This document shows positions 1 through 10,210 of a stretch of 10,210 nucleotides of DNA, in pieces. Both the position numbers and the translations under genes were made by a program. The stretch comes from a virus, in the UHGV virus genome UHGV-0150968. The stretch is one strand, 5' to 3'. Under the pieces are notes generated by a model, which had not been told where the DNA came from, did no database searches, and was given only the letters and a program-made list of their open reading frames with translations. Each line of letters begins with the position of its first letter. The stretch's first letter is position 1.

Positions 1-301
1 ATCCATAACTACCTGTAATTGCCCCCCTTTTTTTGTAACAGTTCTTATATTGCTATATAGAATAGCCATTACTAATGCATTTAAATTTAATAAAATAAAA
101 ATTATAAAAAACATAAAACACCACGCAAACACACTTAATAAAAACACCGTTACATTAAAAGATAATAAAAACCACAATAAAAAACGAATAAATCAATTGT
201 CTCACGCAATTATAAAACATCATATTGATTACGCACCTTGTATTACAAACTCATGTATGTAAAATACGCGCACCATTCAAAAAAAAGGAAGACAATAACA
301 T

Positions 302-1261
302 ATGAAAAAAAGTGTCATCGCTGGCGTCTTTATTGCTCTGTCATTTACCACGTGTTCAGCTATCGCGAACAGCCTTGCATTATCATTAGCAAATGATGAT
401 GCAGGGAAGTTTCAACCAATACTTAATGATATTTATGGCAATAAACATGAAAACAGAGATGATTACTCACAAGGCTTATTTCTGGGATATAGCCACGATA
501 TCTCAGACTCGAGCCAATTATCTCTCCATATTGCGCAAGATATTTACTCTCCATCAGGCAGTAATAAAAGACACAACACAGCTGTAACTGGAGACAGAGC
601 TTTTAGTGCATACACTCACACTGGTATTGAATGGAACTCCCTTGCGAATGACTGGATTCGCTATCGATTAGGTACTGACATAGGTGTTGTTGGCCCCGAC
701 GCAGGCGGTCAGAAAGTACAAAATAAAGCTCATGAGATTATTGGGGCAGAAAAATATCATGCATGGGATGATCAAATAGAGAATCGCTACGGTTATACTG
801 TAAAAGGGATGCTATCCATGACACCAAGTATGGATATTTTAGGTGCTAATGTTGGATTATACCCTGAAGTTTCTGCTGTTACTGGAAACTTATTTCAATA
901 TGTAGCATATGGCGCAACCATTGCCATTGGTAATGATAAAACCTTCAATTCGGATAATGGCTTTGGTCTGCTGGCTCCCCGTGGTTTAATGCATATGTCC
1001 GATACAAGCGGATTCAAATACAAGATTTTTGCAGGTATGGAAAGACGAGATGTCAATCGCAACTATACTCTCGAAGGAAAAACAATACAGACGAAACAAA
1101 CAACAGTATCGCTGAACAAAACTGTTGATGAATATCAAGTTGGCGCAACAATTGGGTATGCACCTGTAGCCTTCACACTAGCATTTAATAAAGTAACATC
1201 AGAATTCAAGACAGGGGATGACTATTCATTTATAAATGGAGCAATCACCTTCTTTTTTTAA
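302..1261 (+). CDS. lpxR: Outer-membrane lipid A 3'-O-deacylase, LpxR family (319 aa precursor)
   Basis: N-terminal signal peptide (MKKSVIAGVFIALSFTTCSAIA); C-terminal aromatic ...ITFFF typical of OM beta-barrels; AGGAAG RBS about 10 nt upstream of ATG. If cleaved after AIA, mature residues N9, D10 and H122 coincide with the LpxR catalytic residues as I recall them (N9, D10, T34, H122), with S at position 34. Length matches Salmonella LpxR (319 aa) from memory. Confidence 0.6.
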   Translation: MKKSVIAGVFIALSFTTCSAIANSLALSLANDDAGKFQPILNDIYGNKHENRDDYSQGLFLGYSHDISDSSQLSLHIAQDIYSPSGSNKRHNTAVTGDRAFSAYTHTGIEWNSLANDWIRYRLGTDIGVVGPDAGGQKVQNKAHEIIGAEKYHAWDDQIENRYGYTVKGMLSMTPSMDILGANVGLYPEVSAVTGNLFQYVAYGATIAIGNDKTFNSDNGFGLLAPRGLMHMSDTSGFKYKIFAGMERRDVNRNYTLEGKTIQTKQTTVSLNKTVDEYQVGATIGYAPVAFTLAFNKVTSEFKTGDDYSFINGAITFFF

Positions 1262-1309
1262 CTGAATTGAATTCAATCAAAATAACATAAGTCCAACAAA
1301 AACATAAAG

Positions 1310-1344
1310 TGCGAAATGAATGCCAGCTCCATTTATTTCGCACT
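1310..1344. terminator. Perfect 9-bp inverted repeat (GTGCGAAAT...ATTTCGCAC) between convergent lpxR and ninI; T-rich tract follows on the - strand
   Basis: Seen directly in the sequence. On the - strand the hairpin is followed by CTTTATGTTTTTGTTGG; on the + strand the trailing sequence is A/T-rich but not a clean U-run. Confidence 0.4.
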
Positions 1345-1464
1345 ATAAAAGATTAAAAGTTGCAATAAAATGACTCAGTTACGAAAACCAATAAACTGTG
1401 GCCAGTAGTGAGTCGCTCATCATCGGGCTTTTTGGCGAATGAAATTTAGCTACGCTTTCGAGTC

Positions 1465-2130
1465 TCATGCGCCTTCTCCCTGTACCTGAATCAATGTGAG
1501 GTTTCCGCAGAACACTGCGCCAGTATCGATATACATCTGGTTGGCAAATTTGAGTGGTTTCACTGCTGGCGTATGACCAAAGATGAACGTGTCCGCGCCT
1601 TTGATTTCTTTCACGATCCCGTCTTGTGAGTTGCTGATTCGTTCGCGGTTCCAGATTACCTGCTGATGATCAACTGGCTTTCCAAACTCGTATTTATCAC
1701 AAGGATAATCGGCGTGGCAAATGACATATTTTTTATCTTTGCTCACCAGTTCGATGATTAACGGAAGTTCTTCTGCTTTATGGGCAAGAACTTTAGCCAG
1801 AGTCTCTTTGTCGTAATCGAGATTAAAGAACCAGCCACCGCCATTAAGCAGCCAGTGATTAACGTTTCCACGCTCTGATAAGCCATCAATCATCATTTGC
1901 TCATGGTTTCCACGCACAGCTCTGAACCAGGGGAATGTGATTAATTCCAGACATTCGACGTTCTCTGTACCGCGATCAACCAAATCGCCAACCGAGATGA
2001 GCAGGTCTTTTTTGGTGTCGAATCCAATCGTATCCAGTTTGTTCATCAGGTTCGTGTAGCATCCGTGCAGGTCGCCAGCTACCCAAATATTTCGGTATTT
2101 GCTGCCATCAATTCTTTCGTAGATATTCAT
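1465..2130 (-). CDS. ninI: Ser/Thr protein phosphatase, lambda NinI (orf221) type, 221 aa
   Basis: PPP-family motifs GDLHG, GDLVDRG and GNHE are present; the protein closely resembles my recollection of lambda orf221; start ATG overlaps the ninG stop (ATGA). Confidence 0.85.
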
Positions 2131-2741
2131 GCAGCCTCACTTCTGCTGTTTCGCAGGTCTTTGAGTTTCTGTTGGTACTCTGCCTTGATCGCCTTGCACT
2201 CTTCGACAGTCCAGCGATGGCGGTTATGGTTTGATTCGATTTCGTCTACTGCTTCCTGCCCGATGCGGCTAATCAGTTCGACGCGATACGGAACGAGATT
2301 TCCGCTTTTGTGCTGGTTGCACACCACGCATTGCTTGTGAATATTGCGTTCATCAAATCGGAGTTGAGGTGCCGCAGCAGTTGTCCGGTAATGTCCGGCA
2401 TCCCACTGAGCAGACGTGAGCGTTCCGCACGAGATACATGGTAAGTCGCGGTCTCTTTCTCTGATGAAGGCGTTTACGGCTTGTTGGGCTTGTTTAATCC
2501 AGTAACTGCGGGGCTTTAAGGCGAGTTTTCGAATCTTAAGTTTATCTTTCTGTTTCTGCTCCTCTCGTCGTCGTTTCTTCTCTGCTGCTTTTTCCGCTTT
2601 TTCGCGTTCTTTACTTCGTCGTTCGAGTGCTATCTTGGTTCCACACTCTGGAGAGCACCACCACTGATTAGCGAATGCAGGGTGAAACCATTCCCGACAT
2701 TCATCGTTTTTACATCGTCTTCGCGCTGGTTTAGCCATCAT
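2127..2741 (-). CDS. ninG: NinG / Rap recombination-associated endonuclease, 204 aa
   Basis: 204 aa as in lambda NinG; N-terminus [15 protein letters not shown]...; several Cys pairs; its start overlaps the ninF stop. Confidence 0.85.
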
Positions 2742-2901
2742 CTTCTTCCTCGTGCATCGAGCTATTCGAATCGCTCATCAGCTCTGCACAGCAGTGCTCA
2801 CACACGTGAACTTCCAGCACATGCAGCTTCTGACCGCAATTAGCGCACGTTAAAGCCCGCTCGACGCTTTCTTGTTCGTAACTTCGATTTGGGTCAATCA
2901 C
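2731..2901 (-). CDS. ninF: NinF-like small Cys-rich protein (56 aa from GTG at 2901; the ORF track extends to a GTG at 2943 giving 70 aa)
   Basis: C-terminal part ([20 protein letters not shown]...EEEDDG) matches lambda NinF as I recall it. The GTG at 2901 has a GAGGAA SD 8 nt upstream and overlaps the ninE stop (GTGA); the upstream GTG has no SD. Confidence 0.6.
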
Positions 2902-3080
2902 CTTGTATTCCTCGCACGATGTCTTAGCCACCGGATATCCCACAGGTGAGCCGTGTAGTTGAAGGTTTTTACGTCAGATTCTTTTGGGATTGGCTTGCGT
3001 TTATTTCTGGAGCGTTTCGTTGGAAGGTATTTGCAGTTTTCGCAGATGATGTCGGTGAAACTTCGTCGTTGTCGCCTCAT
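2898..3080 (-). CDS. ninE: NinE, 60 aa
   Basis: 60 aa, [29 protein letters not shown]..., consistent with lambda NinE; ATG overlaps the stop of the upstream ORF (ATGA). Confidence 0.75.
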
Positions 3081-3373
3081 GCCGCCCTCCTGACGCCCTG
3101 CCCGATCGCCATCAATGCCGCTTTGGATACGATAGTAAACATCCGTCGAGGACTAATGAACGGTCGCCAAATCAGCAGCATGGAGCCTTTGCTGTTTCCC
3201 TTCTTCTCCAGCCCTGTCGATGGTTCGATAAAATTAATCCGTCCATCAGTGATAATACGAACTTCGTCAACACTCTCCAGAGCCTTGCTGAACCATCCGA
3301 CAGACATATCCTCTGGCACAAGCATCACTACACGAGAACCAGCGAGCCTGATGTGGTTAAAAGACAGGCACAA
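3077..3373 (-). CDS. Hypothetical protein upstream of ninE; start uncertain (TTG at 3373, first ATG at 3325), possibly a 5'-truncated remnant
   Basis: Its stop is coupled to the ninE start (ATGA) and its composition is protein-like, unlike the antisense frame. It has no ATG start or good SD, and the frame closes 2 codons upstream of 3373, within about 35 bp of the + strand orf28. Confidence 0.4.
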
Positions 3374-3408
3374 TCTTTACTACCGCAATCCACTATTTAA
3401 GGTGATAT

Positions 3409-3495
3409 ATGGAAGAAGAATTTGAAGAGTTCGAAGAGCATCCTCAGGATGTGATGGAACAATACCAGGACTATCCGTATGACTACGACTATTGA
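3409..3495 (+). CDS. Lambda orf28-like acidic peptide (28 aa, MEEEFEEFEEHPQDVMEQYQDYPYDYDY)
   Basis: AAGGTG SD upstream; overlaps the ral start by 17 bp, as in lambda by my recollection. Confidence 0.6.
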   Translation: MEEEFEEFEEHPQDVMEQYQDYPYDYDY

Positions 3496-3679
3496 TAAAA
3501 ATCAATGGTGTGGACAATTCAAGCGATGCAATGGATGCAAGCTGCAATCGAAATGCATGGTTAAGCCTGAAGAAATGTTTCCTGTAATGGAAGATGGGAA
3601 ATATGTCGATAAATGGGCAATACGAACGACGGCAATGATTGCCAGAGAACTTGGTAAACAGAACAACAAGGCTGCCTGA
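3479..3679 (+). CDS. ral: Ral, restriction-alleviation protein, 66 aa
   Basis: Protein MTTTIDKNQWCGQFKRCNGCKLQSKC...GKQNNKAA matches lambda Ral length and sequence from memory. Confidence 0.9.
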   Translation: MTTTIDKNQWCGQFKRCNGCKLQSKCMVKPEEMFPVMEDGKYVDKWAIRTTAMIARELGKQNNKAA

Positions 3680-3696
3680 TGGTGGCCTTCATTTTT
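3668..3696 (+). terminator. Hairpin plus U-tract immediately after ral, with the stop codon in the loop
   Basis: AAGGCTGCC-TGAT-GGTGGCCTT stem-loop followed by CATTTTT; seen in the sequence. Confidence 0.5.
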
Positions 3697-3718
3697 GGCA
3701 TAAACAACAGAGGCGAAG

Positions 3719-3916
3719 ATGTTGACAGTTGGAAAGGCATATTCAACTAAAAATGGAAAGACATTTAGTTGTGAAAAAGATATTGGAGAAATAGACACTA
3801 TCTTTCCATTTGGTGGATGGGTATACAATTCTGATGGAAGCAAAGACAGATTTGCATATTACACCAGAGGAGGTACTTATAAACTAACCAAATCAGAATA
3901 TGATTTAATTATTTAG
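3719..3916 (+). CDS. Hypothetical small protein, 65 aa, no recognisable family
   Basis: ATG with GAGG SD 5 nt upstream; AT-rich coding sequence; Gly/Tyr/Lys/Thr-rich product (MLTVGKAYSTKNGKTFSCEKDIGEIDTIFPFGGWVYNSDGSKDRFAYYTRGG...). It sits in the ral-ea10 intergenic region, which is about 205 bp longer here than in lambda by my recollection of coordinates. Confidence 0.5.
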   Translation: MLTVGKAYSTKNGKTFSCEKDIGEIDTIFPFGGWVYNSDGSKDRFAYYTRGGTYKLTKSEYDLII

Positions 3917-4020
3917 CACAGAGAAGCACTGTGTATTCATTCCAACGAGTGAATACACGGAGCAATGTCGCTCGTAACTAAACAGGAGCCGACTTGTTCT
4001 GATTATTGGAAATCTTCTTT

Positions 4021-4047
4021 GCCCTCCAATGTGAGGGCGATTTTTTA
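4021..4047 (+). terminator. Intrinsic terminator (GCCCTC-CAATGT-GAGGGC then GATTTTTTA) just upstream of ea10; position fits lambda tL2a
   Basis: Perfect 6-bp GC-rich stem followed by a T-run; maps to about lambda 33,930 under the coordinate offset inferred from int to ea10. Confidence 0.6.
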
Positions 4048-4066
4048 TCTGTGAGGATATGAACAG

Positions 4067-4435
4067 ATGTCAAACATCAAAAAATACATCATTGATTACG
4101 ACTGGAAAGCATCAATAGAAATTGAAATCGACCATGACGTAATGACAGAGGAAAAACTTCACCAGATTAATAATTTCTGGTCAGACTCTGAATACCGACT
4201 CAATAAACACGGCTCTGTATTAAATGCTGTATTAATCATGCTGGCGCAACATGCTCTGCTTATAGCAATTTCAAGCGACTTAAATGCATATGGTGTTGTG
4301 TGTGAGTTCGACTGGAATGATGGAAATGGTCAGGAAGGATGGCCTCCAATGGATGGTAGCGAAGGAATAAGAATTACCGATATCGATACATCAGGAATAT
4401 TTGATTCAGATGATATGACTATCAAAGCCGCCTGA
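4067..4435 (+). CDS. ea10: Ea10 protein, 122 aa
   Basis: 122 aa as in lambda Ea10; GAGGA SD upstream. Confidence 0.85.
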   Translation: MSNIKKYIIDYDWKASIEIEIDHDVMTEEKLHQINNFWSDSEYRLNKHGSVLNAVLIMLAQHALLIAISSDLNAYGVVCEFDWNDGNGQEGWPPMDGSEGIRITDIDTSGIFDSDDMTIKAA

Positions 4436-4458
4436 GCGCGGCGTTACCGCATACCAAT

Positions 4459-4485
4459 AACGCTTCACTCGAGGCGTTTTTCGTT
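4459..4485 (+). terminator. Hairpin (AACGCTTC-ACTC-GAGGCGTT) plus U-rich tail between ea10 and cIII; position fits lambda tL2b
   Basis: 8-bp stem with one G-U pair followed by TTTCGTT; seen in the sequence. Confidence 0.45.
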
Positions 4486-4507
4486 ATGTATAAATAAGGA
4501 GCACACC

Positions 4508-4672
4508 ATGCAATATGCCATTGCAGGGTGGCCTGTTGCTGGCTGCCCTTCCGAATCTTTACTTGAACGAATCACCCGTAAATTACGTGACGGATGGAAA
4601 CGCCTTATCGACATACTTAATCAGCCAGGAGTCCCAAAAAATGGATCAAACACTTATGGCTATCCAGACTAA
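4508..4672 (+). CDS. cIII: CIII, FtsH-inhibitor that stabilises CII, 54 aa
   Basis: Below the ORF-track size cutoff; translated by hand as [54 protein letters not shown]; AAGGAG SD upstream. Confidence 0.9.
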   Translation: MQYAIAGWPVAGCPSESLLERITRKLRDGWKRLIDILNQPGVPKNGSNTYGYPD

Positions 4673-4805
4673 ATTCACTATCGCCACTTTTATTGGCGAT
4701 GAAAAGATGTTTCGTGAGGCCGTCGACGCTTATAAAAAATGGATATTAATACTGAAACTGAGATCAAGCAAAAGCATTCACTACCCCCCTTCCCTGTTTT
4801 CCTAA
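4641..4805 (+). CDS. kil: Kil, host-killing FtsZ inhibitor; 54 aa here versus 47 aa in reference lambda by recollection
   Basis: ATG at 4641 overlaps the 3' end of cIII by 32 bp as in lambda; product [47 protein letters not shown] followed by YPPSLFS. Confidence 0.75.
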
Positions 4806-5155
4806 TCAGCCCGGCATTTCGCGGACGATATTTTCACAGCTATTTCAGGAGTTCAGCCATGAACGCTTATTACATTCAGGATCGTCTTGAGGCTCAGAGC
4901 TGGACGCGTCACTACCAGCAGCTCGCCCGTGAAGAGAAAGAGGCAGAACTGGCAGACGACATGGAAAAAAGCCTGCCCCAGCACCTGTTTGAATCGCTAT
5001 GCATCGATCATTTGCAACGCCACGGGGCCAGCAAAAAAGCCATTACCCGTGCGTTTGATGACGATGTTGAGTTTCAGGAGCGCATGGCAGAACACATCCG
5101 GTACATGGTTGAAACCATTGCTCACCACCAGGTTGATATTGATTCAGAGGTATAA
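4739..5155 (+). CDS. gam: Gam (long form 138 aa; short form from the internal ATG at 4859 with AGGAG SD), RecBCD inhibitor
   Basis: Length and sequence match lambda Gam from memory. Confidence 0.9.
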
Positions 5156-5160
5156 AACGG

Positions 5161-5946
5161 ATGAGTACAGCACTCGCAACGCTGGCAGGGAAGCTGGCTG
5201 AACGTGTCGGCATGGATTCTGTCGACCCACAGGAACTGATCACCACTCTTCGCCAGACGGCATTTAAAGGTGATGCCAGCGATGCGCAGTTCATCGCATT
5301 GTTGATCGTCGCCAACCAGTACGGCCTTAATCCGTGGACGAAAGAAATTTACGCCTTCCCTGATAAGCAGAACGGCATCGTTCCGGTGGTGGGCGTTGAT
5401 GGCTGGTCCCGCATCATCAATGAAAACCAGCAGTTTGATGGCATGGACTTTGAGCAGGACAATGAATCATGTACATGCCGGATTTACCGCAAGGACCGTA
5501 ATCATCCGATCTGCGTTACCGAGTGGATGGATGAATGCCGCCGCGAACCATTCAAAACCCGCGAAGGCAGAGAAATCACCGGACCGTGGCAGTCGCATCC
5601 CAAACGGATGTTACGGCATAAAGCCATGATTCAGTGTGCCCGTCTGGCCTTCGGATTTGCTGGTATCTATGACAAGGATGAAGCCGAGCGCATTGTCGAA
5701 AATACTGCATACACTGCAGAACGTCAGCCGGAACGCGACATCACTCCGGTTAACGATGAAACCATGCAGGAGATTAACACTCTGCTGATCGCCCTGGATA
5801 AAACATGGGATGACGACTTATTGCCGCTCTGTTCCCAGATATTTCGCCGCGACATTCGCGCATCGTCAGAACTGACACAGGCCGAAGCAGTGAAAGCTCT
5901 TGGATTCCTGAAACAGAAAGCCACTGAGCAGAAGGTGGCAGCATGA
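5161..5946 (+). CDS. bet: Bet (Red-beta) single-strand annealing protein, 261 aa
   Basis: 261 aa; [37 protein letters not shown]... matches lambda Bet. Confidence 0.95.
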
Positions 5947-6623
5947 CACCGGACATTATCCTGCAGCGTACCGGGATCGACGTGAGAGCTGTCGAACAGG
6001 GGGATGATGCATGGCACAAATTACGGCTCGGCGTCATCACCGCTTCAGAAGTTCACAACGTGATAGCAAAGCCCCGCTCAGGAAAGAAGTGGCCTGACAT
6101 GAAAATGTCCTACTTCCACACCCTGCTGGCTGAGGTTTGCACCGGTGTGGCTCCGGAAGTTAATGCTAAGGCGCTGGCCTGGGGAAAACAGTACGAGAAC
6201 GACGCCAGAACCCTGTTTGAATTCACTTCCGGCGTGAATGTTACTGAATCCCCGATCATCTATCGCGACGAAAGTATGCGCACCGCCTGCTCTCCCGATG
6301 GTTTATGCAGTGACGGCAACGGCCTTGAACTGAAATGCCCGTTTACCTCCCGGGATTTCATGAAATTCCGGCTCGGTGGTTTCGAGGCAATAAAATCGGC
6401 TTACATGGCCCAGGTGCAGTACAGCATGTGGGTGACGCGAAAAGATGCCTGGTACTTTGCCAACTATGACCCGCGTATGAAGCGTGAAGGCCTGCATTAT
6501 GTCGTGATTGAGCGGAATGAAAAGTACATGGCGAGTTTTGACGAGATGGTGCCGGAGTTCATCGAAAAAATGGACGAGGCACTGGCTGAAATTGGTTTTG
6601 TATTTGGGGAGCAATGGCGATGA
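5943..6623 (+). CDS. exo: Exo (Red-alpha) 5'-3' exonuclease, 226 aa
   Basis: 226 aa; ATGA overlap with the bet stop; sequence matches lambda Exo. Confidence 0.95.
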
Positions 6624-6799
6624 CGCATCCTCACGATAATATCCGGGTAGGCGCAATCACTTTCGTCTACTCCGTTACAAAGCGAGGCTGGGTATTTCCC
6701 GGCCTTTCTGTAATCCGAAATCCCCTGAAAGCACAGCGGCTGGCTGAGGAGATAAATAATAAACGGGGGGGGCTGTATGCACAAAGCATCTCCCGTTGA
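6620..6799 (+). CDS. Lambda orf60a-like small protein (59 aa from the ATG overlapping the exo stop; 61 aa from ATG 6614)
   Basis: ATGA coupling to the exo stop; the C-terminal reading frame depends on the G8 homopolymer at 6765-6772. Confidence 0.55.
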
Positions 6800-6968
6800 G
6801 TTAAGAACGAGTATCGAGATGGCACATAGCCTCGCTCAAATTGGAGTCAGGTTTGTGCCAATACCAGTAGAAACAGACGAAGAATTTCACACGTTAGCCG
6901 CATCCCTTTCACAAAAGCTGGAAATGATGGTGGCGAAAGCAGAAGCAGATGAGAGAGACCAGGTATGA
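6777..6968 (+). CDS. Lambda orf63-like protein, 63 aa
   Basis: 63 aa; the G-run 4 nt upstream serves as SD; overlaps the preceding ORF. Confidence 0.7.
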   Translation: MHKASPVELRTSIEMAHSLAQIGVRFVPIPVETDEEFHTLAASLSQKLEMMVAKAEADERDQV

Positions 6969-7048
6969 CAACCACTGAATGCATTTTTCTGGCAGCGGGC
7001 TTCATATTCTGTGTGCTTATGCTTGCCGACATGGGACTTGTTCAATGA
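6965..7048 (+). CDS. Possible 27-aa hydrophobic peptide (MTTTECIFLAAGFIFCVLMLADMGLVQ)
   Basis: ATGA-coupled to the orf63 stop and to the next ORF start; one predicted transmembrane stretch; very short, so speculative. Confidence 0.3.
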   Translation: MTTTECIFLAAGFIFCVLMLADMGLVQ

Positions 7049-7260
7049 CACCTCAGCAGGAAAACGCCCTTCGCAGCATTGCCCGTCAGGCTAATTCTGA
7101 AATCAAAAAAGCCAGACAGCAGTTTCCGGATAAAAACGTCGATGACATTTGCCGTAGCGTACTGAAGAAGCACCGCGAAACGGTAACGCTGATGGGATTC
7201 ACACCGACTCATTTAAGCCTGGCAATCGGCATGTTAAACGGCGTCTTTAAGGAACGATGA
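7045..7260 (+). CDS. Hypothetical 71-aa protein (MTPQQENALRSIARQANSEIKKARQQFPDKNVDD...)
   Basis: ATGA-coupled on both ends; protein-like composition. Confidence 0.5.
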   Translation: MTPQQENALRSIARQANSEIKKARQQFPDKNVDDICRSVLKKHRETVTLMGFTPTHLSLAIGMLNGVFKER

Positions 7261-7281
7261 ACATGAAAAGCAAAATCATCA

Positions 7282-7306
7282 GGGAGCTACAGGCTCCTTT
7301 TTTATT
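7282..7306 (+). terminator. Hairpin (GGGAGC-TACAG-GCTCC) followed by TTTTTTATT
   Basis: Seen in the sequence; lies inside a possible 31-aa ORF (7257-7352), which I therefore do not call as a gene. Confidence 0.45.
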
Positions 7307-7358
7307 ATTCGCATTCACCCTCAAGCGTATTAACCAACAATTCAGGGATTAATGAAAG

Positions 7359-7580
7359 ATGGCAGACATCATTGATTCAGCATCAGAAATTGAAGAATTA
7401 CAGCGCAACACAGCAATAAAAATGCGCCGCCTGAACCACCAGGCTATATCTGCCACTCATTGTTGTGAGTGTGGCGATCCCATAGATGAGCGAAGACGCC
7501 TGGCCGTTCAGGGTTGTCGGACTTGTGCAAGTTGCCAGGAAGATCTGGAGCTTATCAGTAAACAGAGAGGTTCGAAGTGA
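7359..7580 (+). CDS. TraR/DksA-family C4 zinc-finger protein, 73 aa (lambda orf73-like)
   Basis: CxxC...CxxC pattern (HCCECGD ... GCRTCASC) with about 17-residue spacing, typical of the TraR/DksA C-terminal zinc finger; stop overlaps the ea22 GTG start. Confidence 0.75.
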   Translation: MADIIDSASEIEELQRNTAIKMRRLNHQAISATHCCECGDPIDERRRLAVQGCRTCASCQEDLELISKQRGSK

Positions 7581-8125
7581 GCGAAATTAACTCTCAGGCA
7601 CTGCGTGAAGCGGCAGAGCAGGCAATGCATGACGACTGGGGATTTGACGCAGACCTTTTCCATGAATTGGTAACACCATCGATTGTGCTGGAACTGCTGG
7701 ATGAACGGGAAAGAAACCAGCAATACATCAAACGCCGCGACCAGGAGAACGAGGATATTGCGCTAACAGTAGGGAAACTGCGTGTTGAGCTTGAAACAGC
7801 AAAATCAAAACTCAACGAGCAGCGTGAGTATTACGAAGGTGTTATCTCGGATGGGAGTAAGCGTATTGCTAAACTGGAAAGCAACGAAGTCCGTGAAGAC
7901 GGAAACCAGTTTCTTGTTGTTCGCCATCCTGGGAAGACTCCTGTTATCAAGCACTGCACTGGTGACCTGGAAGAGTTTCTGCGGCAGTTAATCGAACAAG
8001 ACCCGTTAGTAACTATCGACATCATTACGCATCGCTATTACGGGGTTGGAGGTCAATGGGTTCAGGATGCAGGTGAGTATCTGCATATGATGTCTGACGC
8101 TGGCATTCGCATCAAAGGAGAGTGA
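7577..8125 (+). CDS. ea22: Ea22 protein, 182 aa, GTG start
   Basis: 182 aa from GTG, matching lambda Ea22 length; central coiled-coil-like region. Confidence 0.85.
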   Translation: MSEINSQALREAAEQAMHDDWGFDADLFHELVTPSIVLELLDERERNQQYIKRRDQENEDIALTVGKLRVELETAKSKLNEQREYYEGVISDGSKRIAKLESNEVREDGNQFLVVRHPGKTPVIKHCTGDLEEFLRQLIEQDPLVTIDIITHRYYGVGGQWVQDAGEYLHMMSDAGIRIKGE

Positions 8126-8316
8126 GATCGGTTTTGTAAAAGATAACGCTTGTGAAAATGCTGAATTTCGCGTCGTCTTCACAGCGATGCCAGAGTCTGT
8201 AGTGTCAGATGATGACCGTACTCAAACATCGGGTTGAGTATTATCTTACTGTTTCTTTACATAAACATTGCTGATACCGTTTAGCTGAAACGACATACAT
8301 TGCAAGGAGTTTATAA

Positions 8317-8598
8317 ATGAGTATCAATGAGTTAGAGTCTGAGCAAAAAGATTGGGCGTTATCAATGTTGTGCAGATCCGGTGTCTTGTCTCCATGCAGA
8401 CATCACGAAGGTGTTTATGTAGATGAAGGTATAGATATAGAGTCGGCATACAAATATTCCATGAAGGTTTATAAGTCTAATGAAGACAAATCCCCATTCT
8501 GCAATGTGCGAGAAATGACTGATACCGTGCAAAATTATTATCACGAGTACGGTGGAAACGATACTTGCCCTCTCTGTACAAAACATATAGATGATTAA
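8317..8598 (+). CDS. ea8.5: Ea8.5 protein, 93 aa
   Basis: 93 aa; AAGGAG SD; matches lambda Ea8.5 length and sequence from memory. Confidence 0.85.
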   Translation: MSINELESEQKDWALSMLCRSGVLSPCRHHEGVYVDEGIDIESAYKYSMKVYKSNEDKSPFCNVREMTDTVQNYYHEYGGNDTCPLCTKHIDD

Positions 8599-8615
8599 AC
8601 CCAATATTACATAAC

Positions 8616-8647
8616 AATCCTCGCACTCGCGGGGATTTATTTTATCT
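8616..8647 (+). terminator. GC-rich hairpin (AATCCTCGC-ACTC-GCGGGGATT) followed by TATTTTAT, downstream of ea8.5
   Basis: Seen in the sequence. Confidence 0.45.
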
Positions 8648-8686
8648 GAACTCGCTACGGCGGGTTTTGTTTTATGGAGATGATAA

Positions 8687-8854
8687 ATGCACTTCCGAGT
8701 CACAGGTGAATGGAATGGAGAGCCATTCAACAGGGTTATCGAAGCAGAGAACATCAACGACTGCTATAACCACTGGATGATATGGGCGCAGATAGCGCAT
8801 GCAGACGTAACCAATATTCGAATTGAAGAACTGAAAGAACACCAAGCCGCCTGA
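8687..8854 (+). CDS. Hypothetical 55-aa protein between ea8.5 and xis (MHFRVTGEWNGEPFNRVIEAENINDCYNHWMIWAQIAHADVTNIRIEELKEHQAA)
   Basis: GGAG SD 8 nt upstream; position corresponds to an unnamed lambda ORF at about 29118-29285 by recollection; below the ORF-track cutoff, translated by hand. Confidence 0.55.
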   Translation: MHFRVTGEWNGEPFNRVIEAENINDCYNHWMIWAQIAHADVTNIRIEELKEHQAA

Positions 8855-8866
8855 TGGCGGTTTTTT
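8846..8866 (+). terminator. Hairpin GCCGCC-TGAT-GGCGG followed by TTTTTT, with the 55-aa ORF stop codon in the loop
   Basis: Seen in the sequence. Confidence 0.5.
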
Positions 8867-8867
8867 C

Positions 8868-8906
8868 TTGCGTGTAATTGCGGAGACTTTGCGATGTACT
8901 TGACAC
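8868..8906 (+). promoter_or_regulatory. pI (int promoter) with CII recognition repeat TTGC-N6-TTGC at 8868-8881
   Basis: TTGCGTGTAATTGC seen directly. Established lambda biology: the CII-dependent pI starts inside xis, so its transcript makes Int but not Xis. The -10 and start-site positions are inferred. Confidence 0.55.
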
Positions 8907-9112
8907 TTCAGGAGTGGAACGCTCGCCAGCGACGCCCAAGAAGCCTTGAAACAGTTCGTCGATGGGTGCGCGAATGCAGGATATTCCCTCCTCCGGTTAA
9001 GGATGGAAGAGAATATCTGTTCCACGAATCAGCGGTAAAGGTTGACTTAAATCGACCAGTAACAGGTAGCCTTTTGAAGAGGATCAGAAATGGGAAGAAG
9101 GCGAAGTCATGA
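8894..9112 (+). CDS. xis: Excisionase Xis, 72 aa
   Basis: MYLTLQEWNARQRRPRSLETVRRWVRECRIFPPPVKDGREYLFHESAVKVDLNRPVTGSLLKRIRNGKKAKS matches lambda Xis; 23-bp overlap with int. Confidence 0.95.
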   Translation: MYLTLQEWNARQRRPRSLETVRRWVRECRIFPPPVKDGREYLFHESAVKVDLNRPVTGSLLKRIRNGKKAKS

Positions 9113-10160
9113 GCGCCGGGATTTACCCCCTAACCTTTATATAAGAAACAATGGATATTACTGCTACAGGGACCCAAGGACGGGTAAAGAGTTTGGATTA
9201 GGCAGAGACAGGCGAATCGCAATCACTGAAGCTATACAGGCCAACATTGAGTTATTTTCAGGACACAAACACAAGCCTCTGACAGCGAGAATCAACAGTG
9301 ATAATTCCGTTACGTTACATTCATGGCTTGATCGCTACGAAAAAATCCTGGCCAGCAGAGGAATCAAACAGAAGACACTCATAAATTACATGAGCAAAAT
9401 TAAAGCAATAAGGAGGGGTCTGCCTGATGCTCCACTTGAAGACATCACCACAAAAGAAATTGCGGCAATGCTCAATGGATACATAAACGAGGGCAAGGCG
9501 GCGTCAGCCAAGTTAATCAGATCAACACTGAGCGATGCATTCCGAGAGGCAATAGCTGAAGGCCATATAACAACAAACCCTGTCGCTGCCACTCGCGCAG
9601 CAAAATCAGAGGTAAGGAGATCAAGACTTACGGCTGACGAATACCTGAAAATTTATCAAGCAGCAGAATCATCACCATGTTGGCTCAGACTTGCAATGGA
9701 ACTGGCTGTTGTTACCGGGCAACGAGTTGGTGATTTATGCGAAATGAAGTGGTCTGATATCGTAGATGGATATCTTTATGTCGAGCAAAGCAAAACAGGC
9801 GTAAAAATTGCCATCCCAACAGCATTGCATGTTGATGCTCTCGGAATATCAATGAAGGAAACACTTGATAAATGCAAAGAGATTCTTGGCGGAGAAACCA
9901 TAATTGCATCTACTCGTCGCGAACCGCTTTCATCCGGCACAGTATCAAGGTATTTTATGCGCGCACGAAAAGCATCAGGTCTTTCCTTCGAAGGGGATCC
10001 GCCTACCTTTCACGAGTTGCGCAGTTTGTCTGCAAGACTCTATGAGAAGCAGATAAGCGATAAGTTTGCTCAACATCTTCTCGGGCATAAGTCGGACACC
10101 ATGGCATCACAGTATCGTGATGACAGAGGCAGGGAGTGGGACAAAATTGAAATCAAATAA
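9090..10160 (+). CDS. int: Tyrosine integrase Int, 356 aa
   Basis: 356 aa; sequence matches lambda Int from memory, including the C-terminal catalytic region (...HLLGHKSDTMASQYRDDRGREWDKIEIK). Confidence 0.97.
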   Translation: MGRRRSHERRDLPPNLYIRNNGYYCYRDPRTGKEFGLGRDRRIAITEAIQANIELFSGHKHKPLTARINSDNSVTLHSWLDRYEKILASRGIKQKTLINYMSKIKAIRRGLPDAPLEDITTKEIAAMLNGYINEGKAASAKLIRSTLSDAFREAIAEGHITTNPVAATRAAKSEVRRSRLTADEYLKIYQAAESSPCWLRLAMELAVVTGQRVGDLCEMKWSDIVDGYLYVEQSKTGVKIAIPTALHVDALGISMKETLDKCKEILGGETIIASTRREPLSSGTVSRYFMRARKASGLSFEGDPPTFHELRSLSARLYEKQISDKFAQHLLGHKSDTMASQYRDDRGREWDKIEIK

Positions 10161-10210
10161 TGATTTTATTTTGACTGATAGTGACCTGTTCGTTGCAACA
10201 AATTGATAAG
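10161..10210. other. att-site P' arm with tandem Int arm-type binding sites (reverse complement AGGTCACTAT and CAGTCAAAAT at 10168-10187); the core lies beyond the window end
   Basis: The reverse complement of the window end reads GTTGCAACGAACAGGTCACTATCAGTCAAAATAAAATCA, the familiar lambda attP P' arm. Confidence 0.7.

Follow-up and report, generated by a model that had tools for sequence, protein, structure and literature searches.

LpxR is an outer-membrane enzyme which, according to PMC6260217 and PMC4651636, depends on Ca2+ and cleaves the 3'-acyloxyacyl ester bond of lipid A by hydrolysis resembling that of phospholipase A2, yielding a less bioactive lipid A. The enzymology and mechanism of Salmonella LpxR are taken here from PMC6260217, which cites Rutten 2009 and Reynolds 2006; in that account N9, D10, and T34 coordinate the catalytic Ca2+ and H122 activates water (summarising Rutten 2009), and D11 is a second-site residue. 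In EHEC, lpxR is described as encoding a Pch/Ler-activated 3'-O-deacylase that is co-expressed with LEE, is a member of the LEE modulon, and lowers phagocytosis and innate responses (Ogawa 2018, as relayed in PMC6393859 and PMC9263587). A statistical association of lpxR with LEE has been found in both bovine and human isolates. Another described carrier is phage 434, a classical Jacob-Wollman lambdoid phage in which the gene is annotated as 'outer membrane beta-barrel lipid A deacylase LpxR'. According to the 434 genome announcement (PMC9119081), these phages do not all have the same morons, and some of the morons are virulence factors.

Here we analyse the lpxR locus of UHGV virus genome UHGV-0150968; the whole stretch of 10,210 nucleotides that was available is referred to as the window. 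We consider it very probable that the window encodes an LpxR deacylase on a moron cassette situated in the nin/Q region of what is now a defective prophage. The gene itself, its carriage by phage, its regulation, and its effects in EHEC are already known, and it is correctly named both in RefSeq (LpxR family protein) and in the GenBank record of phage 434. The window contains the exact LpxR allele of O157:H7 EDL933, on the same cassette that phage 434 carries.

The lpxR gene occupies positions 302..1261 of the + strand, begins with ATG, and encodes a 319-residue precursor consisting of a signal peptide (residues 1-22) and a mature protein of 297 residues. An earlier note, written from the sequence alone, had proposed LpxR family membership, and the similarity proved to be overwhelming. 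The open reading frame matches the Pfam LpxR profile (PF09982) with an E value of 6.8e-40; the score is 137.4 bits, for a gathering threshold of 26, and the alignment extends over positions 2-320 of the 323 in the profile. It matches the chain of PDB entry 3FID (Salmonella LpxR) with an E value of 3.6e-153; the alignment pairs residues 24-319 with positions 2-296 of the chain, is interrupted by only one gap of one residue, and 220/296 positions (74%) are identical to the mature chain. A search of NCBIfam with the LpxR protein returned no model. The protein is 100% identical to those of EDL933 (WP_000750155.1), O157:H7 strain 493/89, and phage 434 (CPT_434_65), and the assembly collection contains 18,193 indexed blocks with exactly this sequence. 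Judged by these comparisons, the open reading frame is lpxR, a lipid A deacylase gene that was already known, in an intact copy.

The gene is the only one of a low-GC cassette of approximately 1.42 kb, of which window positions 1-1397 represent almost the whole. The right junction of the cassette lies between 1397 and 1398, where homology to lambda Q starts, and the left junction lies approximately 21-26 bp to the left of window position 1. The latter was placed by comparison with rusA-ylcG-Q modules that are devoid of lpxR, namely that of K-12 DLP12 and those of thousands of other genomes, homology to which stops at approximately 6845-6849 of locus L002, equivalent to window positions -26 to -22. 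The GC content is 26.9% in the upstream part (1..301, + strand; the promoter/leader region), in agreement with the AT-richness first claimed for it, 39.5% in lpxR, and 29.6% in the 3' flank that reaches to the right junction (1262..1397, + strand), compared with 46.6% in the rest of the window. Correspondingly, GC at third codon positions is 0.31 in lpxR versus 0.51 in ninI. Each end of the cassette was also searched for separately: window positions 1-320 gave a match in 620 of 5426 complete E. coli genomes, and so did positions 1240-1400, in both cases once per genome and on chromosomes only, and among the matches listed every one of either segment lies under an lpxR annotation. Because the two flanks occur in equal numbers and the junctions are defined, the AT-rich leader, lpxR, and the hairpin-bearing tail can be regarded as one unit. 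The 1262..1397 flank varies slightly among carriers, in that EHEC copies contain an additional unit of the 8-bp AATAAAAT repeat, of which the window and phage 434 have a single copy.

To the right, the cassette borders on a remnant of a lambda-type antiterminator gene Q (1398..1468, - strand), comprising approximately its first 23 codons, that shares 97% identity with lambda positions 43890-43956 as well as with the Q genes of numerous lambdoid phages. Its start codon overlaps the ninI stop, and its open frame continues into the cassette as far as a stop at 1379. The phage 434 record calls it 'antiterminator-like protein, N-terminal fragment', and in O157:H7 it is listed among the pseudogenes, under the name 'antitermination protein, missing C-terminus'. 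The remnant, which overlaps the 203-bp spacer between lpxR and ninI, had not been mentioned in the earlier note. Beyond it and outside the cassette is ninI (1465..2130, - strand), encoding a lambda-type serine/threonine protein phosphatase (Pfam Metallophos, E 3.4e-16; NCBIfam PRK11439, E 9.7e-82) and annotated as NinI in phage 434, so that lpxR is indeed convergent with ninI, as had been stated. Overall, the cassette is flanked by a rusA'-ylcG-Q(82-type) module on the left and by the Q remnant, ninI, and ninG on the right, and lpxR is transcribed against the surrounding phage early (early-right) operon. Lambda and many lambdoid phages keep an intact Q at the point where the cassette begins. 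Taken on homology, then, lpxR is inside a lambdoid prophage, in its nin/Q region, on a cassette that interrupts a lambda-type Q gene; location within a phage genome between conserved modules, together with a distinct base composition, would class the cassette as a moron.

Phage 434 (OL657226) is among the closest described relatives of this part of the window, matching positions 1-1464 at 99.8% and positions 1-3331 at 99.91%. In addition to an identical protein, 434 has in common with the window the single-copy AATAAAAT variant, and its layout is the same, with LpxR located between YlcG-like and Q82-like genes on one side and the Q N-terminal fragment and NinI on the other. It differs in being complete and viable, with immunity, replication, and dam-ninB genes, whereas the window consists of lambda-type DNA from approximately 3331 onward. 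EHEC prophages at the lambda att/ybhC site display the same arrangement as phage 434. In EDL933, identical LpxR is encoded on the same cassette, with ylcG-Q on one side and the Q' remnant-ninI-ninG-ninF-ninE on the other, and the prophage beside ybhC, which we take to be CP-933K, is also degraded in its immunity and replication region. The EDL933 copy is distinguished by upstream DNA that differs at 4/301 positions (two of which are single-base indels), by the end points of its deletion (ninE-bet', compared with dam'-ral in the window), and by a frameshifted int. The occurrence of the same cassette and identical protein in a temperate phage and in EHEC prophages bears out the proposal that lpxR was acquired horizontally, as cargo for lysogenic conversion.

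Locus L007 has this cassette and Q' remnant next to NinH-RusA, where the other loci have NinI. Such an arrangement is better explained if lambdoid prophages exchanged the cassette by homologous recombination than if it was inserted repeatedly. A search of species-representative genomes for a donor yielded one locus, in a Citrobacter sp., with 73% identity over the coding sequence only; since this homologue is without the cassette flanks, no donor of the cassette was identified among these genomes. The picture that emerges is of a virulence-related moron that probably spread by recombination among lambdoid prophages and was then stranded in defective ones.

The carrier prophage in the window is a mosaic, 434-like over positions 1-3331 and 98.7% identical to lambda over positions 3329-10210. 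The lambda-type part includes int, xis, exo, bet, gam, cIII, an ea10-like gene, and ral. A truncated dam, retaining only positions 84-167 of the Pfam Dam profile, meets the lambda DNA that precedes ral at approximately 3329-3331, and with this dam'-ral deletion the prophage has lost N, cI, cro, cII, O, P, ren, and ninB. The junction is absent from all complete E. coli genomes in the collection, none of which covers >85% of the window. As N is missing along with the immunity region and the genes for replication, the carrier is defective and lpxR has become a fixed gene of the chromosome, a situation similar to that in O157:H7 EDL933. An Rfam scan of the window reported only the lambda cIII thermoregulator (4495-4553), and a scan of positions 1-9000 of the phage 434 locus gave no match.

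With respect to expression, the orientation of lpxR opposite to the phage operon, together with the published Ler/Pch control, implies that the gene has a promoter of its own. The leader (1-301) is strongly skewed in composition, with AT skews of +0.25 to +0.41 and GC skews of -0.42 to -0.47. A GGAAG Shine-Dalgarno-like motif lies 8-12 nt before the lpxR ATG and is the annotated ribosome-binding site in phage 434. A consensus scan of the window for sigma-70-like promoters gave matches not above chance (5 found versus 6.1 expected). Silencing of the AT-rich leader by H-NS is a reasonable inference, with which its 27% GC and the Pch/Ler dependence are consistent. MicF control of lpxR has been published for Salmonella (PMC4651636); when the 5' 33 nt of E. 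coli MicF were folded against the window lpxR mRNA, the best duplex had an energy of -17.1 kcal/mol, which 32% of shuffled seeds equalled.

At its other end, the gene is followed 44 nt past the stop codon by an inverted repeat (1305..1347) with arms of 18 nt and a loop of 7 nt. Its presence between lpxR and ninI had been noted correctly, though the description of it as perfect holds for only a part: the arms (1305-1322 and 1330-1347) are 89% complementary, and perfect pairing is confined to a 10-bp core (AGTGCGAAAT and ATTTCGCACT). In the + strand RNA (1308-1344) the hairpin has a 15-bp stem and a folding energy of -19.1 kcal/mol (z = -7.0 versus shuffles), with no U-tail; in the - strand RNA the energy is -16.4 kcal/mol (z = -3.2) and the hairpin is followed by UUUAUGUUUUUGUUGG, a U-rich run. 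The element is nearly invariant across phage 434 and the EHEC loci, with one loop change in locus L003. Most likely it marks the end of the lpxR transcript. The U-rich run suggests that polymerase arriving from the ninI side in unmodified form may be halted by the hairpin as well, and it is likely to act as a terminator in both directions. Since a consensus terminator scan of the window did not report the hairpin after lpxR, its role in termination is one that we infer.

This antisense arrangement raises the question of whether lpxR could be of use to the phage. In intact carriers such as 434, the sole route of transcription from pR via the nin genes to the functional Q passes lpxR in antisense, and this might couple the virulence gene with late-gene activation, an idea which we regard as tentative and, on balance, unlikely. 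Transcription of lpxR from a promoter of its own, switched on by host virulence regulators, could collide or pair with the Q-bound read-through transcript of 434; conversely, N-antiterminated lytic transcription could silence lpxR in intact carriers, and the hairpin with its U-tail on the phage-sense strand (1290-1347) could form an extra N-dependent checkpoint before Q. Such coupling does not apply to the window prophage, which has lost pR and N.

A broader form of this argument, in which lpxR would mainly serve the phage, either by remodelling the outer membrane (vesicles, adsorption by other phages, lysis) or by antisense interference with Q, is in our estimation improbable. It draws on the position of lpxR antisense in the path from pR to Q, on the hairpin and U-tail of the phage-sense strand, and on the fact that the carrier 434 is a viable phage isolated from sewage, so that carriage is not restricted to pathogens. 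Against it, 434 and 434B are the only phage records with an LpxR homologue among 50,697 searched by tblastn, leaving 434 as the only phage with the gene, and lpxR in E. coli tracks LEE-positive pathotypes and the Ler regulon in the literature (including PMC9263587). Furthermore, the prophages of both the window and EDL933 are defective, yet LpxR is intact and identical in the two, which suggests that it is the cargo, and not the phage, that has been under selection. We therefore favour lpxR as a virulence-related moron that is of benefit to the lysogen.

The location of lpxR within the prophage has a bearing on a further possibility. The earlier note had put the gene at a left boundary and next to a prophage remnant, and left room for chromosomal-island cargo that adjoins the remnant but lies outside it. 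Within the window nothing stands to the left of lpxR, and the prophage is clearly degraded by the dam'-ral deletion, both of which would be compatible with such an island. The supposed boundary is, however, the edge of the window only. The left context was compared among O157:H7 strains, ten loci encoding the exact protein, and coliphage 434. All of these related loci have, to the left of lpxR, the phage genes ylcG, Q (as two ORFs in L003), and TfpB, followed by holin and lysis genes in all but L003, which is disrupted by an IS element, and by terminase or head genes in several; to the right, ninI-ninG-ninF-ninE are found in most loci. Because the related loci continue leftward with ylcG, Q, and lysis genes, lpxR is placed within the prophage and not beside it, on a cassette that interrupts Q in the nin/Q region. 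The same 1.46 kb is moreover part of the packaged genome of phage 434, and a Q-gene remnant borders the cassette on its right, making a location outside the prophage very improbable.

Turning to the moron's product, the protein has, by inspection, both of the signals expected for targeting to the outer membrane: a cleavable signal peptide of the Sec type and, at the C-terminus, an aromatic signature typical of beta-barrels. The signal peptide, MKKSVIAGVFIALSFTTCSAIA, which is followed by N, opens with an n-region containing KK and continues with a hydrophobic core (mean Kyte-Doolittle value 2.1) and an AxA motif, with cleavage predicted after Ala22 (AIA/N); this predicted cut site coincides with the first residue of the crystallised mature 3FID chain. 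The C-terminus ends in ITFFF, as it does in Salmonella LpxR. The signal peptide and the Phe-rich C-terminal signature that had been claimed are upheld by inspection and, for the former, by the start of 3FID. The catalytic positions given earlier (mature N9, D10, and H122, with S34) were likewise numbered exactly: N31, D32, S56, and H144 of the precursor are residues N9, D10, S34, and H122 of the mature protein, and in the alignment the Asn, Asp, and His positions align with those of the Salmonella enzyme. Residues N9, D10, D11, K67, Q118, H122, E128, K129, and Y130 are identical to Salmonella LpxR, and the sole change among the named active-site residues is from T34 to Ser.

If the protein acts as the Salmonella enzyme does, it would be exported by the Sec pathway, fold as a 12-stranded outer-membrane beta-barrel, and hydrolyse lipid A in a Ca2+-dependent manner so that the 3'-acyloxyacyl group is released. 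The Ca2+, held by D10, N9, and S34, would polarise the ester, and H122 would activate the attacking water, as in phospholipase A2. Under-acylated lipid A would be expected to stimulate host innate immunity more weakly, and by trimming its lipid A in this manner the bacterium would become less visible to the innate immune system. That the intact open reading frame encodes a protein without enzymatic activity or with a new role, as a result of T34S for instance, and supplies an outer-membrane barrel protein only is scarcely credible: while position 34 differs and the activity of Salmonella LpxR has been reported to be relatively low (PMC6260217), serine retains the hydroxyl, T34 seemed dispensable for holding Ca2+ in the simulations described there, every other active-site residue is conserved, and EHEC lpxR, the EDL933 protein of which is identical, has reported 3'-O-deacylase activity and effects on phagocytosis (PMC6393859).

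The window protein thus resembles that of Salmonella Typhimurium (STM1328; 3FID) in family, fold, length, and C-terminus, in addition to the 74% identity of the mature chains, and differs in having Ser where the latter has T34; the Salmonella gene is presumably chromosomal rather than phage-borne. LpxR homologues are also found on E. coli plasmids (e.g. NZ_CP157094 and NZ_AP019857), where they constitute a separate allele with approximately 80% amino-acid identity to that of the window. These provide full-length homologues on mobile DNA in the same species; unlike the cassette, they reside on plasmids of approximately 100 kb with no prophage, and some match residues 1-269 only.

A final observation concerns the small RNA PasD. 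A 2026 preprint places Q and LpxR within 10 kb of >98% of PasD sRNA genes, and locates pasD directly upstream of a sialate esterase gene in phage 2B8. A position for PasD within the non-coding DNA of the cassette was considered and rejected, as the gene maps beyond Q, outside the window. Phage 2B8 itself is without lpxR and matches the window from position 1401 onward only.

The lpxR cassette interrupts a lambda-type Q antiterminator gene, of which only an N-terminal remnant of about 23 codons remains (1398-1468, minus strand; frame open to 1379), with its start codon overlapping the stop of ninI. In related genomes, the functional Q is a different gene, of the 82-type, and lies across lpxR from this remnant. 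The same cassette and Q remnant as in the window are present at 9698-11186 of locus L007 (AP018802.1), where homology to the window stops at window position 1481; there, however, NinH-RusA-YbcO rather than NinI-NinG is found to the right. The cassette has therefore been shuffled between different nin regions.

The lpxR-carrying prophage of E. coli O157:H7 EDL933, located at ybhC (locus L014, 12127-16955), is also defective, with bet truncated immediately after ninE and a frameshifted integrase; the deletion there begins and ends at other points than the one in the window. The window has a deletion or recombination junction at ~3329-3331, where 434-like DNA (99.9%) with a truncated phage dam methyltransferase gene is joined to lambda-like sequence from upstream of ral; the genes lost are N, cI, cro, cII, O, P, ren, and ninB. 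This dam'/ral junction was absent from all 5426 complete E. coli genomes searched.

Among RNA elements, the Rfam Lambda_thermo family (cIII thermoregulator) matched at 4495-4553 on the plus strand (88.5 bits), just before the cIII gene (4508-4672) and overlapping its start. Scanning positions 1-9000 of the phage 434 locus (L002) returned no match to Rfam families. According to a 2026 preprint, the prophage sRNA PasD is located upstream of the sialate esterase gene, and in >98% of cases Q and LpxR are no more than 10 kb away. By analogy with phage 434, the PasD region would lie to the left of the window, corresponding to ~4550-6000 of L002.

The DNA upstream of lpxR (1-300) is AT-rich and strongly strand-asymmetric, the lpxR strand carrying far more A than T and far more C than G (AT skew reaching +0.41; GC skew approximately -0.45), and contains short direct repeats, namely two copies of TAATAAAAAC and a 29-nt repeat (97-125 and 158-186). 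On the 3' side of lpxR, the octamer AATAAAAT (~1364-1371) is present as a single copy in the window, as it is in phage 434, whereas the EHEC loci examined carry two tandem copies.

E. coli plasmids of ~100 kb carry an LpxR allele that differs from this one (~80% amino-acid identity), and plasmids of pig isolates carry an LpxR version that matches residues 1-269 only; examples among these plasmid records are NZ_CP157094 (51044-52000) and NZ_CP062888 (71586-72392).
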